14,203 nt of DNA from assembly GCA_046542505.1 (NCBI GenBank), contig JBKHBH010000051.1, forward strand, positions 1 through 14,203, in the 5' to 3' direction. The stretch comes from Thermovirgaceae bacterium. Its GTDB lineage: Bacteria > Synergistota > Synergistia > Synergistales > Thermovirgaceae. How positions within the stretch are numbered: the stretch's first letter is position 1; each line of letters opens with the position of its first letter. Positions 2,145 through 11,055 of the stretch are shown in pieces. The translations under genes and the position numbers were made by a program. Under the pieces are notes generated by a model. That model saw only the letters and a list, made by a program, of their open reading frames with translations, did not search any database and was not told where the DNA came from.

Positions 2145-5049
2145 CACCGGAGCCTCCAGGTCTTTCGTCCATCCTGCAGAGTCCCCTGTATCCGCAGGTC
2201 GTGCATGCCTCTGATCCCCATTTCGGAGGAAATACTCCCGATAGAAGCCCCTGTGCCATTTCGTCGAGTTCCTTTCGCGCTTTTTCGAGCGATTCTTTTA
2301 GCATTTCCGGGGAAACCGCTTTTTTCCCGAAAAAGGGCGCCGTACTCCTTGTGAACCGACCCACCACCTTGCCGTCGCCGAGGCAGAGATACCCCCATCC
2401 GGAAAGGGGCGGGAAGCCCTCCCTGTCCATGACGAGGGCATAGGCGGGAAGCTGGAGACTCTTTCTGTAGGAGTCTGAAGAGCCTGATTTGTAGTCGATC
2501 AAGAGGGCCTCTGACTCGAGAATATCTAACCTGTCAAAGCGGCCCCTGAAGGTGACTCCGGAAAATGTCGCCGAAAGCTCTCCTTCGCGGACCTGGTTCC
2601 TGCGTCCTTCGCAAAGACCGCGCCCGTCGATCTCCTCCTGTTCCCTGCACAGGCGGAAAACCTGGTCACGAAGCCTGATGCCGTGGCGAAACAGGTAAGA
2701 TCCCTCCCTCAGGAGTTCCGGGTACTTTTGCAGAACCGTTTTTTTCCAGATTCCGTCAACGATTTCCGTGAGGTTCCTTCCGGTTTTTTTCTTTTCCAGC
2801 CAGGCCTTGTTCCAGAGGTCATGGATCATACTTCCGGCCCTCGCAGCGTCAAAAAGGCCCGGGCGGGGCTCCTGCAGACCGAGAATCCTCATGGCGTAGT
2901 AGCGGAAAGGGCAGGTCCGCCAGAGGTCGATGTCACCGAGGTAGGCTGTCGGCGATGAGGCGGGGTCCCTTTTTTCGAGGCTCTGGATCTCTCCCGTGAG
3001 CCGGCGGGGGACAAGAGGCTTTTCGGCTTCTCGGACCTCCACGGGCCTGATTCGGGTCCCGCTGTTTTCAGGCAGCACATCCTTCATGGTAGTCCTGACG
3101 GGTTCGTCTTGCAGGGGAGTGATCCATGGGGCATCTCCTTCGCGGGCGTCGCGCAAAAATGGTGAAAGCTGCAGGGGGCGGCCCGAAGCGTCCTGGCGCG
3201 GACGGCTGACAATGGTCAGTTCGTCGCCGCAGGCAAGGATACGGCGGAACAATGCGTGTCGCTGTCTGCGAATTTCGGACAAAAGAGGCAGATGAAAGGC
3301 TCCGAGCTCAAGAGACGGATCCTGATGGAGAAGTTCTCTCTTTTCGTCCGGGAGGAGGGGCGATTGCCTGAGACGGCCGGGCCAGGCCGAAGCCAGTGCC
3401 CCGGCGAACACGAAAACCCGATGATGGGCCAGTACCGGCGGATTCCCGGAATACAGGGTCAGGCTTCCGGTTTTTCTCGCAGTCTGCCAGATGGTCGAAC
3501 GTTCCGCCCACGCGCGCAAAAAGGCCATGGCCCTGTCTCCGGCGAGCTTCCGGCGTCCTGCAGGACCGATATCCGGCTCCGCCTCGCGCAGTTCGAGGGC
3601 TTTTTGTTCAAGCTCCCGCACGGCACCGCTCAACCGGCGGACTCCTTCGTCGAGGTCCGGTTCCTCCAGCACGAGATCAGAGAGGGCCCGGTCCCAGCCG
3701 CCGCGATGCATACCGTAAGGGGCTGTCATTGATTTGAAGGCTTCCAGGAGTTCCGCCGGAGTTCCACCTGATTCAACGGTCTCGATAAAAGACAGAAGGC
3801 CTTTGAAAACGGGCAGACTGTCGGGTCCTTCGGTGGCAAGAAAGTCTTCCCAGCCTTTTTTGCCTGAAGGAAGGGTCTCGATGGCGGTTCTGAAGGGGAA
3901 AGCGTGTCCCGTCAGGAATGGTTCCGTCAACAGCCGTGCCGTATCTTCGGCGGGAAAATCCCTCCGGTTGAGATCCCAGAGGCGGGAAGCCGTTTCCCAC
4001 AGCGGTGTGGAGGAGACATTCGGGCCGTCGTCGACGAAACAGGGCACCTTGTACCTTTCGAGGATTTCCTCCGCCAGAAGGAGTCTGTTAGCATCCACGG
4101 CGATCGCCGTATCACCCCATCCCGGGAACGGGCCCGCCGCTTCGGCAAAAGGACCCTCCGCCTTTTCCCACAGGACGAGATTCCGCACCAGGTGCTCGAT
4201 TTCCAGTCTCTGGTCGCCCGACTCAAGTTCAAGCACGCAAAGCGGCCGATGGCATTTGAAGACGGGGATCTCTTCAAGGACTGTCTCGAGCTGTTGGGAC
4301 GCGTTGTGGATGTCCAACCCTGTCGCCGGTGTCAGGACGAGGAGTCGGGCCCCCGCATCATGAAGGCATCGCAGAAGGAGGAGCTGGCCGTGGGTGAAAC
4401 TCAAAAACCCTGTAAAGACAAAGGATGCCGAACTGAGCCAGGAGAAGGCTTCTTTTGGGTGGTCCTCCACCATCCTGCGAATGACCGTTGCCGCCTGGGC
4501 GCTGTCGAAAAGCCCTTCCGATTCGAGGTACGCGGCGTACCGATGATACAAACGGCAGAGAAGACGGTCGGGATTACCGTCCTCGGGACAGGCTTCACCT
4601 GATTCGCATCCCTCGCACCCGACGGAGGCGGCCACGTGTTCCGGGAGCACTTCCTCCCGGAGGAGTTCCCGCAGCGTTTCACCCAGGATCGAGATGAACC
4701 CCGGTCTGGCTATCGCCGGAGGAAGATTCTCCGGGCTGAGGTTTTCCAGGACTTCTTCAAGGATGTGTCCTACGATAAGCCAGTGATCCGGGGGGGCGAT
4801 CTGCCGCCTCGGGGACAGGCCCCGCGAATCCATACGGGCTGCGGCCTCGCGATAAAGTTCTTCCCAGCGGAGAATCTGGGGTTCTCCGCCGCCGAAGGTC
4901 CCTTCGCCGACAAGAACGTCCCTCAGCCATCGGCGGTCTCCCGTACCGGGAACCACAAAATATTGCCGGCGCTCCCTTACGTCTGCGGCTTCCCGTAAAA
5001 GAGGCACCAGTTCCCGGGCAAACTGGTATTCAAAGATCCGTACCGGCAT
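2128..5049 (-). CDS. addB: AddB-like subunit: inactive helicase scaffold plus C-terminal PD-(D/E)XK RecB-family nuclease with Fe-S cysteines
   Basis: 973 aa; GGAGG upstream of ATG; C-terminal RGRFDRLD...LLIDYKSG...LQLPAY motifs; Cys in WRTCPFRYY plus CTTCGYRGLC matches the 1+3 cysteine 4Fe-4S pattern of AddB; overlaps the addA start. Confidence 0.88.
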   Translation of the reverse strand: MPVRIFEYQFARELVPLLREAADVRERRQYFVVPGTGDRRWLRDVLVGEGTFGGGEPQILRWEELYREAAARMDSRGLSPRRQIAPPDHWLIVGHILEEVLENLSPENLPPAIARPGFISILGETLRELLREEVLPEHVAASVGCEGCESGEACPEDGNPDRLLCRLYHRYAAYLESEGLFDSAQAATVIRRMVEDHPKEAFSWLSSASFVFTGFLSFTHGQLLLLRCLHDAGARLLVLTPATGLDIHNASQQLETVLEEIPVFKCHRPLCVLELESGDQRLEIEHLVRNLVLWEKAEGPFAEAAGPFPGWGDTAIAVDANRLLLAEEILERYKVPCFVDDGPNVSSTPLWETASRLWDLNRRDFPAEDTARLLTEPFLTGHAFPFRTAIETLPSGKKGWEDFLATEGPDSLPVFKGLLSFIETVESGGTPAELLEAFKSMTAPYGMHRGGWDRALSDLVLEEPDLDEGVRRLSGAVRELEQKALELREAEPDIGPAGRRKLAGDRAMAFLRAWAERSTIWQTARKTGSLTLYSGNPPVLAHHRVFVFAGALASAWPGRLRQSPLLPDEKRELLHQDPSLELGAFHLPLLSEIRRQRHALFRRILACGDELTIVSRPRQDASGRPLQLSPFLRDAREGDAPWITPLQDEPVRTTMKDVLPENSGTRIRPVEVREAEKPLVPRRLTGEIQSLEKRDPASSPTAYLGDIDLWRTCPFRYYAMRILGLQEPRPGLFDAARAGSMIHDLWNKAWLEKKKTGRNLTEIVDGIWKKTVLQKYPELLREGSYLFRHGIRLRDQVFRLCREQEEIDGRGLCEGRRNQVREGELSATFSGVTFRGRFDRLDILESEALLIDYKSGSSDSYRKSLQLPAYALVMDREGFPPLSGWGYLCLGDGKVVGRFTRSTAPFFGKKAVSPEMLKESLEKARKELDEMAQGLLSGVFPPKWGSEACTTCGYRGLCRMDERPGGSGDGEAE

Positions 5050-5054
5050 GGCGA

Positions 5055-5096
5055 CCCTCCAGCGTCGTTCTCGTAACTATATTACACGCTGGAGGG
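5055..5096 (-). promoter_or_regulatory. 11-bp perfect inverted repeat covering the addB Shine-Dalgarno, with -10-like hexamers in its loop
   Basis: CCCTCCAGCGT (5055-5065) / ACGCTGGAGGG (5086-5096); on the minus strand the 3' arm contains the addB GGAGG and the loop reads GTAATATAGTTAC. Confidence 0.5.
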
Positions 5097-5148
5097 CACG
5101 ATCGCCGTACCGCCAAAACGCCTTTTCACGGAACGGATCGGGCGAATC

Positions 5149-5310
5149 CTACCGATATCCTTCGAAAGGTCCCCGCCAGCGGACATCGAAGGGTGTTGGC
5201 TCTCCGCCGCTGTTCCACCAATTGCCCGCAGGCGCCGGCTGTTCCGGTCCCCTGGAAAACATCGCTGCCCTGGAGTCCTGCCATACCTCTGCCTGTCTTT
5301 TCTCTCTCAT
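5149..5310 (-). CDS. 53-aa hypothetical small protein downstream of the attenuator (MREKRQAEVW...GPFEGYR)
   Basis: Strong RBS GGGGAGG 7 nt before ATG 5310; the C-terminal part of track ORF 5149..5553; no recognisable family. Confidence 0.5.
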   Translation of the reverse strand: MREKRQAEVWQDSRAAMFSRGPEQPAPAGNWWNSGGEPTPFDVRWRGPFEGYR

Positions 5311-5390
5311 GATGAATCCTCCCCTGTTCTCCGGCGCCTTTCCTGAAGCACGCCTGTCACTCCGGCTTTCTCGCGCGAACCTAAAGAAAT

Positions 5391-5424
5391 AAAAAAGCCG
5401 GGACCCTTTTGAAGGATCCCGGCT
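5391..5424 (-). terminator. Intrinsic terminator (attenuator terminator)
   Basis: Minus-strand RNA AGCCGGGAUCCUU-CAA-AAGGGUCCCGGCU-UUUUU: 13-bp stem with one U-G wobble that pairs only in the minus orientation, then a U tract. Confidence 0.88.
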
Positions 5425-5447
5425 CCTGGCCCGAAGGTATGCGGCGT

Positions 5448-5531
5448 CTATGTGACGGCCGCCCCAGGAGGGGACCCACACGGGATAAGTACAAGAAGAA
5501 TAATGGCGAGAATCACAGAAGATCGAAGCAC
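5448..5531 (-). CDS. 27-aa branched-chain amino acid-rich leader peptide (ilv-type attenuator leader): MLRSSVILAIILLVLIPCGSPPGAAVT
   Basis: AAGGAGG RBS 8 nt before GTG 5531; TAG at 5448-5450; 10 of codons 6-16 are Val/Ile/Leu; followed by mutually exclusive antiterminator/terminator pairings; resembles the E. coli ilvL leader in composition and its IPPCGAA-like tail. Confidence 0.75.
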   Translation of the reverse strand: MLRSSVILAIILLVLIPCGSPPGAAVT

Positions 5532-5595
5532 CGTGCACCCCTCCTTTTTGCATGCCGACAGCCTGCTACAGGTTTTGCCGGAAGATTTTCACGAT

Positions 5596-5624
5596 ATTTT
5601 ACGTCAGTGAAGAATGGCTGTCAA
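5596..5624 (-). promoter_or_regulatory. Sigma70-type promoter for the leader transcript
   Basis: Minus strand TTGACA (5624-5619) - 17 nt - TAAAAT (5601-5596); near-consensus; about 65 nt upstream of the leader start. Confidence 0.8.
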
Positions 5625-5725
5625 AATGTGTACGTTATACATATCTCCCGGCCGTCGTTTCAGAGAAGCGGCTGTCTGCTAAGATAGAGAAACGGTAGAA
5701 CACACAAAAATCGGGAGAGTTGATC

Positions 5726-6010
5726 ATGAGGACATATGGATGTCTGGCGGCTTTTGCAGCCGCTTTCATGTCGGTGGGACCGGCATCCGCGGGGCAGTGG
5801 CACGAGATGATGTTCACAAGATGGATGGGCCCGTGGATGTGGGTGTTCTGGGTAGTCGTGATCGCCCTTGTCATCTTTTTTGTGGCCAGGCGGGCGGAGA
5901 CGCCCGAGGGCGGTCTGGAAGAGCCCCTGGAAATCCTCCGCCGAAGACTCGCGAAAGGGGAAATAACCGAAGAGGAATTCGACCGGCTGAAAAAGAAGAT
6001 CGAAACCTAG
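5726..6010 (+). CDS. Small membrane protein with C-terminal SHOCT domain
   Basis: GGAGA RBS before ATG 5726; signal-like N-terminus (ASA), Met/Trp-rich segment, one TM helix, and the PLEILRRRLAKGEITEEEFDRLKKKI SHOCT signature. Confidence 0.85.
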   Translation: MRTYGCLAAFAAAFMSVGPASAGQWHEMMFTRWMGPWMWVFWVVVIALVIFFVARRAETPEGGLEEPLEILRRRLAKGEITEEEFDRLKKKIET

Positions 6011-6049
6011 GGATGGTATCAAAAGGATCTTGACTGGGAGGAGCGCGTC

Positions 6050-6712
6050 GTGAGGCGATCGATTCAGGTTTTCGAAAATGCGGAATTGCTCGTGGAGACA
6101 CTGGCAGGAGAATGTGCTTCTCTGCTTGCCGGAGGAGGGACAGCGGTTTTCGGCGGAGGGGGCGTCCCTTTTGCCGTGTGCGCCGCCCTGGCAAGCCGGG
6201 CAAACCTTCCCTGGCGCATGATCCAGGTTTTTCCCGCCGATGAGACGTTTTCGCCCAAGGGGCACCCTGAGAGGAATGAAACACGACTGAGGCAGCTGTT
6301 ATCCGGCAGGTCATGCCTGATCCAGTCCTTCCCCACCGGCCTTGACCCGGAGAGGGCGGCACGGGAAATGCAGAAATACGTCCGTCATGTCATTCCTTTT
6401 GACGTGGTGATACTGGAACTCGGCGCCGGCGGGCGGATGGGTTCTCTCACTCCGGGGTCGTCCGTGCTCGAGTCACAGGATCTTGTAGATGTTCAGGAAG
6501 CAGCGGGAAGAAACGATCGAGACAGGCTTGTCTTGACGCCCAGAGCGTTGAGTGCTTCGGAGAAACTTGTCCTCTGCGCGACTGGACCAGAGGCCAAAGA
6601 GCCGCTTCGGGATATTGCAGAAGGAGCGGAACTGCCACCGACGCTTCTGCATCCTCTCCAGCCTGTGGCTCTTTACGCCGACGGGGAAGCCGCCGCGGAG
6701 CTTTATCTCTAG
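6050..6712 (+). CDS. 6-phosphogluconolactonase / glucosamine-6-phosphate isomerase fold protein with divergent active site
   Basis: GGAGGAG RBS, GTG start; ADETFSPKGHPERN resembles GDERxVPxDHxxSN; FDVVILELGAGGRMGSLTPG resembles FDLxLLGxGxDGHTASLFPG; RLVLT, TGPEAK and LPPTLL segments align with Pgl. Confidence 0.75.
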   Translation: MRRSIQVFENAELLVETLAGECASLLAGGGTAVFGGGGVPFAVCAALASRANLPWRMIQVFPADETFSPKGHPERNETRLRQLLSGRSCLIQSFPTGLDPERAAREMQKYVRHVIPFDVVILELGAGGRMGSLTPGSSVLESQDLVDVQEAAGRNDRDRLVLTPRALSASEKLVLCATGPEAKEPLRDIAEGAELPPTLLHPLQPVALYADGEAAAELYL

Positions 6713-9688: not shown

Positions 9689-9883
9689 ATGAAGAACAAG
9701 AACTTCACGCTCGACACGAATTCCGAACTCCGAAAGCGGGCCGCACGACTGGCAGCCGAAGGAGAAACGTTTTGCGCGCGACGTGCCTGGTGTGACCTGG
9801 CGGAGGAGGCGGCTTCCCGCAGAGACTGGGTCCTGGCGGAATATGCCTATAAACGTGGATTGGGGTTACGGACGCTGTGGTGA
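9689..9883 (+). CDS. 64-aa helical hypothetical protein, probably leaderless and coupled to sfsA
   Basis: Fills the gap before sfsA; stop overlaps the sfsA GTG (GTGA at 9880-9883); extended -10 TGCTAGACT ends 6 nt before the ATG; no SD. Confidence 0.55.
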   Translation: MKNKNFTLDTNSELRKRAARLAAEGETFCARRAWCDLAEEAASRRDWVLAEYAYKRGLGLRTLW

Positions 9884-11055
9884 GAAAACTTTCCGGTTAC
9901 AGCCGGCCTCCTGCCCTGTACCGGGCAGCCCGAGGTGAGCTTGTCAGGGGCGATTTCCTCTTTCGGCCGAACCGTTTTGCAGTGATCTGCGAAACGCCCG
10001 GCGGGCCTATCCGGGCCTACCTACCGAACCCCGGCAGACTCCGGGAACTGCTCCTCCCGGGTGCTGTGCTCTTGCTGGAGAAGACCCAAAGAAAGGGAAA
10101 GCGGACCACTGAATATACCGCCGTTGCCGCTGAAACCGCCCGAGGCCCTGTCATGCTTCATACCCACAGGACGAACGACGCAGCGGAGCACCTGTTGCGG
10201 GAAGGCCTTGTCCCCGGGTGGGAGGACCTGTCCGTCCTCCGGCGCGAGGCGGCCTTTGGCGGAAGCCGTTTCGATTTTCTTCTGGATACGCCCGAAGGCC
10301 CTGTCCCTGCGGAGGTGAAATCCTGCACGCTCTTTGGAAAGAGAATGGCCATGTTTCCCGACGCGCCCTCCCTGCGGGCAACCCGGCATGTCCTTCACCT
10401 GGCGGAGATGAAAGGACCAGGCCTGAAACCCAAGGTCCTGTTTCTTGTCCAGTCGGGTTTGATGGAGTTCTTTCTTCCCGACTTTCACACCGACTTCGAG
10501 TTTTCCAGAACCCTTTTCAATTCCAGAAACGATATCGACATCAAGGCCGTCGGCGTCGAATGGAATGACGACCTCGAGATGCCTGCCAGGGCACGGGAAC
10601 TCGAGATCCCCTGGCAGATTTACGAAAAACACGGGATCGACGGCGGGTGCTATCTGCTCATCCTGAAGCTCGACGAAGAAATCCGAATCGGTGTTGGTGC
10701 CCTTGGGCAGATCGATTTCGCGTCCGGGTATTATTGCTACGTCGGGTCGGCAATAAGGAACCTGAAGGCCCGGATGTCGAGACATCTCCGGCGCCGGAAG
10801 AATTTCCACTGGCATGTCGACTACCTGAGAGAGCATTGCGATGTAGTGGTCTGCCTGCCGGTCAGATCGGCGGATCCTCTCGAGTGCGACCTTGCCGGTG
10901 CCGTAGGTGCCATCGCCGGGTCCTCCACGTCTTGCTTCGGCTCTTCCGATTGCACCTGTCCCTCGCACCTGTTTTACTTTTCAGCAAATCCATTGAATAA
11001 TCCGGGATTTATCGACATCCTTCTGGATTTCCGAATCGACAGACTTCTTGAATGA
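9877..11055 (+). CDS. sfsA: SfsA DNA/RNA nuclease-family protein fused to a C-terminal GIY-YIG (DUF123) domain
   Basis: RPNRF, LPNPGRLRELL, SRFDFLL, EVKSCTL, FPDAPSLRATRH are SfsA motifs; C-terminal GCYLLIL...GYYCYVGSA...RH...HWHVDYL...E...FGSSDCTCPSHL is DUF123/GIY-YIG. Start may be GTG 9880. Confidence 0.9.
   Translation: MVRKLSGYSRPPALYRAARGELVRGDFLFRPNRFAVICETPGGPIRAYLPNPGRLRELLLPGAVLLLEKTQRKGKRTTEYTAVAAETARGPVMLHTHRTNDAAEHLLREGLVPGWEDLSVLRREAAFGGSRFDFLLDTPEGPVPAEVKSCTLFGKRMAMFPDAPSLRATRHVLHLAEMKGPGLKPKVLFLVQSGLMEFFLPDFHTDFEFSRTLFNSRNDIDIKAVGVEWNDDLEMPARARELEIPWQIYEKHGIDGGCYLLILKLDEEIRIGVGALGQIDFASGYYCYVGSAIRNLKARMSRHLRRRKNFHWHVDYLREHCDVVVCLPVRSADPLECDLAGAVGAIAGSSTSCFGSSDCTCPSHLFYFSANPLNNPGFIDILLDFRIDRLLE

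Follow-up and report, generated by a model that had tools for sequence, protein, structure and literature searches.

A putative ilvL-type attenuator with Ile/Leu/Val control codons precedes a small Synergistota-specific gene next to addBA

In Escherichia coli, the ilvL attenuator and the leaders ivbL and leuL of the same class combine a short open reading frame (ORF), in which a run of Ile/Val(/Leu) codons is followed by Pro/Cys/Gly/Ala codons encoding G+C-rich stems, with an intrinsic terminator and a competing antiterminator. Attenuators with upstream ORFs (uORFs) rich in branched-chain amino acids (BCAA) are also known upstream of ilvB in several phyla, as described by Narunsky et al. (2023, PMC10272879), whose ilvB-II, ilvB-OMG and ilvB uORF motifs outside the Proteobacteria contain such uORFs in conserved RNA structure with attenuation as proposed mechanism. 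A further case is the sORF-2 motif of Stav et al. (2019, PMC6429828), in which a short, attenuator-like ORF next to hairpins encodes a conserved peptide that contains Pro, and which has no link to biosynthetic genes. Here we describe a leader that resembles these systems on the minus strand of contig JBKHBH010000051.1 of a Thermovirgaceae bacterium (assembly GCA_046542505.1); the whole stretch of 14,203 nucleotides (nt) that was analysed is called the window.

We consider it probable that this leader is an ilvL-type ribosome-mediated transcription attenuator, which is keyed to Ile (and Leu/Val) codons and gates a small Synergistota-specific gene. That it is an attenuator of some kind can be said with good confidence, and that Ile/Leu/Val are its signal with moderate confidence. 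The leader has the structural features of the ilvL-type class, but what it precedes is no known gene for synthesis, transport or tRNA charging of the sensed amino acid: it is a gene for a protein of 53 amino acids (aa), followed by addBA; by sequence the leader belongs to no known leader family. The parts of the leader, in which SD stands for Shine-Dalgarno sequence, are as follows.

5624–5596, minus strand: promoter TTGACA-17-TAAAAT with 11 of 12 consensus matches, driving the leader transcript.
5545–5538, minus strand: leader SD AGGAGGGG, 6 nt ahead of the GTG at 5531 by coordinates and 7 nt if counted from AGGAGGG.
5545–5531, minus strand: segment 1, extending from the leader SD to the initial G of the GTG start codon, pairing with segment 2.
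5531–5448, minus strand: leader ORF with GTG start, 27 aa plus TAG, translated as MLRSSVILAIILLVLIPCGSPPGAAVT and including VILAIILLVLI.
5516–5508, minus strand: second, short run VIL, from the codon analysis.
5504–5484, minus strand: unbroken Ile/Leu/Val codon run IILLVLI, codons 10–16, from the same analysis.
5483–5464, minus strand: segment 2, CCGTGTG plus GGGTCCCCTCCTGG, coding for P-C-G-S-P-P-G, with segment 1 or segment 3 as partner.
5477–5464, minus strand: GGGTCCC-CTCCTGG, the pairing stretch of segment 2.
5473–5466, minus strand: anti-SD CCCCTCCT within segment 2, complementary to the leader SD.
5462–5441, minus strand: inner hairpin GCGG-c-CGTC / GACG-CCGC, with the leader stop codon TAG (5450–5448) at the edge of its loop.
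5429–5414, minus strand: segment 3, CCAGGAG-cc-GGGATCC, which forms the terminator's 5' arm and in the antiterminator pairs with segment 2.
5427–5391, minus strand: intrinsic terminator with a stem at 5427–5393 (16 pairs, 8 of them G-C) and a T run at 5396–5391.

A first-pass annotation of the window had placed a promoter, a ribosome-binding site, a 27-aa ORF and a terminator here, all of which are found in the sequence at these positions, and the antiterminator pairing that it had drawn (GGGUCCC-CUCCUGG with CCAGGAG-cc-GGGAUCC), the inner stem and the SD/anti-SD pairing are correct to the base. In contrast to E. coli ilvL, segment 1 is the SD and start codon of the leader itself and not coding sequence, the leader stop codon is placed within the apical loop of the antiterminator's inner hairpin or next to it, and the gene controlled is not an ilv gene. 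The ilvB motifs differ in the same respect, as by the definition of Narunsky et al. (2023, PMC10272879) they precede ilvB, whereas here the gene of the 53-aa protein next to addBA follows. In the account of Stav et al. (2019, PMC6429828), sORF-2 belongs to alphaproteobacteria of the SAR11 group and is followed by no particular gene, whereas the gene downstream of the present leader is the same in all 11 sequences in which we found it.

These 11 sequences come from an AddB-profile search of genome contigs, which yielded 80 Synergistota loci and, together with the window, 81 sequences with 1,102,145 bases. The AddB relatives belong to the Thermovirgaceae, Synergistales, Aminivibrio and Fretibacterium, all of them Synergistota. 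According to both nhmmer and a covariance model, the leader is present in 11 of the 81 sequences (the window, L001, L003–L008, L010, L011 and L018); the covariance model gave 17 matches over the whole set, that is, the 11 leaders and 6 reverse-strand readings of the same terminators, which corresponds to one leader per locus and no additional copies in 1.1 Mb of AddB loci. Among the 11 relatives with an AddB at least 41% identical and with upstream sequence available, 10 carry the leader and only L009 is without it; L002 begins within addB, has no upstream sequence and is not counted here. Neither nhmmer nor the covariance model found the leader in the remaining 68 loci, 63 of which include at least 600 nt upstream. 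In the leader-bearing relatives, whose AddB is 41–66% identical, a perfect TTGACA −35 box stands at the equivalent place, as in the window, and the order of leader, ORF of 51–55 aa ending in W-R-G-P/F-F-E-G-Y/F-R and addB is kept in 11 of 11; what follows the leader is thus always the small ORF and then addB, and not the ilv, leu or liv genes that the first-pass annotation had proposed to look for in relatives. As leader and small ORF have remained intact together across an AddB divergence down to 41% identity, they form a conserved two-gene module, and on sequence grounds the leader is a conserved element and neither a chance pattern nor a relic.

The ilvL-like architecture that had been proposed from the window alone is conserved in all 11 genomes, with ORF, Ile/Leu/Val run, terminator, antiterminator and SD-sequestering helix. 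In detail, each sequence contains an in-frame ORF of 27–34 aa with an AGGAGGG SD located 7–8 nt before the start codon. The N-terminal halves of the peptides vary in sequence and length, and every peptide has an unbroken run of 4–9 Ile/Leu/Val codons with at least two adjacent Ile codons and no other residue inside, which stops 4–5 codons upstream of the Pro-Pro of an invariant G-x-P-P-G-A. Third codon positions across G-S-P-P-G-A-A-V are identical in 8–11 of the 11 leaders, compared with 4–10 of 11 upstream of the Ile/Leu/Val run, and this stretch is therefore held by the RNA and not by the protein. In the window, the run relies on less common codons (ATT, CTT and GTA), whose shares within their codon families are 21%, 24% and 7% in the long genes of the window. 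GTG or TTG takes the place of ATG as start codon in nine of the 11 leaders (5531–5529 in the window and the equivalent positions elsewhere), a choice that may be constrained by the pairing of the start codon with segment 2. The peptide of L018 (MSRKFADSFVHALIIISRGAPPGAGVA) is polar except for LIII and lacks a membrane-spanning stretch; that only LIII is kept in such a peptide favours codon sensing over a membrane peptide or a toxin. A lipoprotein signal peptide (L-I-P/T-C) was also considered for the leaders and rejected, as the Cys is missing in 8 of 11.

At the peptide level the resemblance to E. coli IlvL (MTALLRVISLVVISVVVIIIPPCGAALGRGKA) extends to an Ile/Val run followed by P-P-C-G-A-A, and the string VISVVVIII is common to IlvL and the leader of L005. 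BLASTP of these two gave no alignment, the NCBIfam IlvL model NF007744 matched none of 7 Synergistota leaders at E values up to 10 (1.5e-23 for E. coli IlvL), and the NCBIfam search of the same 7 leaders matched no family. The likeness may be convergent, because G+C-rich stems force Pro/Gly/Ala codons. A search of all Rfam families at E values up to 1 gave nothing at the leader locus, including no ilvB-type match, which covers the ilvB motifs only if Rfam holds them.

All three helices required for a switch are energetically favourable. In the window the calculated duplex energies are −26.2 kcal/mol for segments 2:3 and −25.8 kcal/mol for the SD/start region with segment 2, and over the 11 species they range from −21.9 to −25.8 kcal/mol (1:2), from −20.3 to −30.8 kcal/mol (2:3) and from −21.4 to −30.4 kcal/mol (3:4, the terminator). 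The full-length RNA adopts the terminator fold in 11 of 11 cases, and the helix between SD and segment 2 is part of 10 of the 11 full-length minimum free energy (MFE) structures; in the window, the MFE structure pairs the SD with a CUUCUU run, and the centroid structure contains the SD:segment 2 helix. RNA that ends before the 3' arm of the terminator folds in 10 of 11 cases into a single long hairpin with helix 2:3 on the outside and the stop-codon hairpin on the inside. Both alternative structures expected by the first-pass annotation are thus recovered, and an antiterminator that uses the 5' arm of the terminator is supported by duplex energy, by the folds of the truncated RNA and by its pairing relative to slid controls. 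In all 11 sequences the leader stop codon falls inside the apical loop of the inner hairpin or next to it, and this hairpin is kept in relatives with differing stems (CGTC/GACG, CGCGC/GCGCG and TGCC/GGCA).

From a MAFFT alignment, RNAalifold predicted no more than the terminator and a local stem, since insertions and deletions in the stop-codon hairpin misaligned segment 3, and covariance-model alignments were used in its place. For the terminated fold, 89.8% of the cells are paired over the 11 sequences and 17 of 48 pairs have changed on both sides, a level reached by 0 of 500 shuffles, with slid controls at 43–53%; the alignment behind these counts was fitted to the terminated fold. On the same alignment, which was not fitted to the antiterminator, the latter reaches 86.0% paired cells versus 34–57% in slid controls, and on its own fitted alignment 93.6% (10 sequences, L004 being below the cut-off). 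Separated by helix and again over 11 sequences, the SD half of helix 1:2 is 96% paired, its start-codon half 92% (two-sided changes in 4 of 8 pairs), the stop-codon hairpin 81%, and the terminator helix 90.8% (two-sided changes in 9 of 16 pairs). The start-codon half of 1:2 and the stop-codon hairpin alter their sequence yet retain pairing. Furthermore, segment 2 follows the 3' arm of the terminator lineage by lineage when inspected by eye, with GGGTCCC in the window, GGGTTCC in L004 and GGGG(C/T)CCC in L005 and L018. Within the single window sequence these pairings are not unique: among its 28,364 22-mers, 95 match the pairing of segment 2 with segment 3 and 30 that with segment 1, counts which take in overlapping windows and trivial complements, and the whole leader folds with a z-score of −2.4, 3 of 200 shuffles folding equally well. 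The case therefore rests on conservation in the 10 other genomes, where the parts, their conservation and their potential to pair are established.

From this layout we infer the direction of the switch and its amino-acid specificity. The near-consensus promoter would yield a leader of about 200 nt, on which a ribosome begins to translate. With ample charged tRNA, the ribosome would cross segment 2, that is, the G-S-P-P-G codons, and proceed to the stop codon in or beside the loop of the inner hairpin. A ribosome reaching this stop codon would open the entire 5' side of the antiterminator hairpin, leaving segment 3 to segment 4, and the transcript would end; that a ribosome at the stop codon would block the antiterminator is a steric argument. 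Pausing at Pro-Pro-Gly may briefly keep the ribosome on segment 2 and favour termination; Pro-Pro motifs are described to pause ribosomes and to alter attenuator output in reporters (PMC8129111, PMC5021804). In the released RNA, segment 2 would pair with the SD and start codon of the leader, as seen in the predicted fold, and further translation would be prevented. If Ile/Leu/Val-tRNA is scarce, the ribosome would stall on the Ile/Leu/Val run just short of segment 2, the 2:3 antiterminator could form first, and the polymerase would continue into the 53-aa gene. Under the footprint assumed here, a ribosome stalled with its A site on the first codons of the run would end short of segment 2 and leave it free. 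Later stall positions reduce the pairing of the terminator 5' arm in the group L005–L008, and the mean pairing of this arm in the truncated RNA discriminates weakly, as the arm takes other partners when segment 2 is masked.

Several observations weigh against this mechanism. The footprint itself, set at −12 to +14 nt relative to the P site, is assumed. When equilibrium folding was repeated with a ribosome mask at each codon, the probability of the terminator was 0.84–1.00 everywhere and in all 11 sequences; the terminator is favoured at all ribosome positions, and therefore the switch would have to be kinetic. Covariation of helix 2:3 is modest, with 4 of 25 pairs changed on both sides and as many two-sided changes in 14 of 500 shuffles on the unfitted and 4 of 500 on the fitted alignment, because both strands are nearly invariant. 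L005–L011 account for six of the 11 sequences and are closely related, leaving only about 4–5 independent lineages. Ten of the 11 leader peptides are so hydrophobic that they could themselves be membrane peptides, and the small downstream gene has no known link to Ile/Leu/Val. Moreover, a different cis element, PBC-10, is listed by Stav et al. (2019, PMC6429828) in front of Synergistaceae ilvH (acetolactate synthase). Finally, the truncated RNA prefers the antiterminator even when no ribosome is present (10 of 11), so that the element may report translation in general and not BCAA.

Fairly unlikely, in our view, is the explanation that follows from the last point, namely that the same RNA switch senses general translation (ribosome supply, coupling, Pro-Pro/EF-P status or ribosome-targeting stress) and that read-through results whenever the leader ribosome is late to segment 2 for any reason. 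This would suit the preference of the ribosome-free RNA and the missing BCAA link of the regulated gene, and it gains from the stricter conservation of G-x-P-P-G-A compared with the Ile/Leu/Val run and from the known pausing at Pro-Pro (see above). However, a Pro-Pro-Gly pause would cover segment 2 and favour default termination, so that it cannot be the inducing signal, and the Pro-Pro is accounted for by the RNA, because CCTCC is the anti-SD. The run, on the other hand, consists exclusively of Ile/Leu/Val in 11 of 11 leaders, even as LIII in the polar L018 peptide, and its spacing is such that a ribosome stalled there would leave segment 2 free.

We give a lower probability, in the range of the distinctly unlikely, to a stand-alone gene whose hydrophobic peptide and/or stable RNA of about 200 nt acts in trans, with the small ORF expressed by leakage only. 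The own near-consensus promoter in all 11 sequences, the compact terminated RNA with its 5' region paired to segment 2 and the hydrophobic stretch in 10 of 11 peptides would agree with this, and for the rhizobial trp leader trans functions of both the attenuator RNA and the peptide have been described. Against it stand the lack of conservation in the N-termini and lengths of the peptides, the polar L018 peptide, and the fact that the residues conserved at the C-terminus fall on RNA pairing segments, where synonymous sites are fixed as well. In addition, a segment mimicking the 3' arm of the terminator has no use in a simple terminator, and the small ORF is always there without a promoter of its own. 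A trans function would in any case be compatible with an attenuator rather than exclusive of it.

The first-pass annotation had named a type I toxin-antitoxin locus as a less likely alternative, in which a small hydrophobic toxin is encoded by an mRNA that hides its SD and is controlled by an antisense RNA, and we regard this as very unlikely. Type I toxin mRNAs do share with the leader a small hydrophobic ORF (10 of 11 peptides here) and, in the finished RNA, an SD paired to an internal, downstream anti-SD. In contrast to them, no promoter-like site was found on the opposite strand of the window, L004, L005 and L018 in a scan of 5 sequences for a sigma-70-type consensus, and L001 has two weak 9/12 sites that are not conserved. 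The orthologous peptide of L018 is not hydrophobic, so that a hydrophobic peptide is not conserved throughout, the anti-SD doubles as antiterminator strand, there is a single copy per locus without extras in 1.1 Mb, and the conserved antiterminator and the dependent downstream ORF would be left unexplained. The other possibility raised before, that the leader is what remains of a deleted ilv/liv operon, has in its favour the absence of ilv, leu and liv genes from the window but is hardly credible. A relic would decay, yet in 11 genomes with AddB identities of 41–66% the promoter, the SD, the leader ORF, every helix and the downstream ORF have stayed intact and in synteny.

The region downstream of the leader contains the following features.

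5324–5149, minus strand: 53-aa ORF ending in WRGPFEGYR (5310–5149) with SD GGGGAGG (5324–5318), the proposed regulated gene.
5096–5055, minus strand: hairpin enclosing the addB SD, CCCTCCAGCG (5096–5087) with CGCTGGAGGG (5064–5055), from folding.
5084–5079, minus strand: −10-like TAATAT in the loop of this hairpin.
5049–2128, minus strand: addB, 973 aa, PD-(D/E)XK nuclease, from ORF and domain match.
2147–3, minus strand: addA, UvrD-type helicase, running off the window, from ORF and domain match.

A consensus scan of both strands from 4900 to 6500 identified the leader promoter as the sole promoter-like site, with an average of 0.4 in shuffles. In the five sequences scanned for it (the window, L001, L004, L005 and L018), the stretch from the terminator to the small ORF contains no promoter-like site, and the small ORF therefore depends on read-through. 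A loose parallel to such a tiny ORF is E. coli ilvX, an annotated ORF of 16 aa between the ilvL attenuator and ilvG (L081 708–758, K-12). The 53-aa ORF had been called an orphan, but a profile search places it in a family of 48 database proteins, which are from Synergistota wherever the organism is named and are all termed "hypothetical protein" in the source. An HMMER search of representative proteins gave 4 matches, neither Pfam nor NCBIfam, the latter searched with two of the small proteins, contained a match, and the Protein Atlas returned no usable one. AlphaFold2 with 26 sequences gave a predicted local distance difference test score of 58.9 and a predicted template modelling score of 0.19, which suggests a disordered protein acting via a short motif, probably through its WRGPFEG tail. 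Distant Synergistota homologs of 58–72 aa (Aminivibrio and others) carry WRGPFEG twice, internally and at the C-terminus (P0067, P0070, P0071, P0074, P0077, P0080, P0082, P0083, P0087 and P0088); none of these two-motif homologs is located within the AddB loci examined, and therefore the family is wider than its link to addB.

Three matches to longer, fused forms of the small protein were discarded as apparently over-extended ORF calls that cross leader and terminator in another frame. In this context, gene callers predict proteins of 101–138 aa (P0092–P0094) ending with the small protein, and a 134-aa ORF of the window (5553–5149) is of the same type. The N-terminal extension of P0094, which is of the two-motif type, looks as if a hairpin and a T run had been translated, a hint that a terminator precedes this gene as well. 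We also considered the small ORF as an arrest peptide that opens the addB hairpin, and set this idea aside, as the hairpin lies about 50 nt past the stop codon in the window and farther away in relatives, and distant homologs have the motif internally as well as terminally.

The first-pass annotation let read-through lead to the 53-aa ORF and then to addB-addA. This gene order is as described, but addBA as a regulatory output is doubtful, since the addB SD sits in the 3' arm of a conserved hairpin that is also found in the leaderless L009. The loop of this hairpin has a −10-like box, TGCTAATAT or TGCTATCAT in relatives, and the layout is shared by 11 of 12 folded sequences (the window, L001 and L003–L011), L018 being different. 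This suggests a promoter within the hairpin, so that only addB's own transcript may be translatable. With the SD locked on any read-through RNA, addBA would probably gain nothing from read-through, and addB seems to be insulated from the leader. At the protein level, Cys949, Cys952 and Cys958 of AddB are invariant among 29 aligned homologs, and addB and addA overlap by 20 nt (2128–2147).

Domain annotation found no ilv, leu or liv genes in the window. On the opposite strand, a SHOCT-domain gene (5720–6010) and a 6-phosphogluconolactonase-like gene are divergent from the leader locus. Farther away, an ORF of 392 aa (9877–11055, plus strand) joins SfsA N-terminal OB and nuclease-like domains to DUF123; the only Rfam match of the window at E values up to 1, a piece of the ALIL pseudoknot at 9965–9998 (20.1 bits versus a threshold of 50, E = 0.12), lies inside this ORF and is probably due to chance. 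The intergenic spacers of several Thermovirgaceae metagenome-assembled genomes are filled with tandem arrays of short heptamer-like repeats (type CCGTTCA / GTCTCAC), which surround the module in L005 (about 150–330 and 830–1000) and in L006–L009; none was seen in the window spacer.

Searches of literature full text for leader peptide, attenuation and Synergistetes returned no description of such an element, and the WRGPFEG motif was not mentioned in the texts searched. Stav et al. (2019, PMC6429828) analysed Thermovirga lienii and place PBC-10 in front of amino-acid genes, ilvH among them. For the 48 T. lienii intergenic regions listed there, no RecB/AddB-type gene is named downstream, and two rows with "hypothetical protein" are neither matched nor excluded.

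Of the two readings offered by the first-pass annotation, BCAA-starvation control of a new small protein fits the present data. The attenuator suggests a condition under which a conserved, unannotated protein family would be produced, and the region itself is shown to be misread by gene callers as longer ORFs. It also provides a natural switch of compact form that is unusual in two respects: the leader's own ribosome-binding site serves as segment 1, and the stop codon falls within the apical loop of the antiterminator's inner hairpin or next to it. A more speculative and, as a whole, rather unlikely possibility is a starvation circuit in which a tRNA-charging sensor built on the leader ribosome-binding site frees a disordered mini-protein whose WRGPFEG docks on the ribosome, RNA polymerase or AddAB, with a possible additional role in trans for the abundant terminated leader RNA; if true, this would be a new family of starvation effectors and the first leader-peptide attenuator described in Synergistota. 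Synergistota ferment amino acids, and the branched-chain ones are likely a fermentation substrate as well as a building block. Leader-peptide attenuators are usually treated as feedback on amino-acid biosynthesis, and in these organisms the same logic is apparently wired to a small protein.

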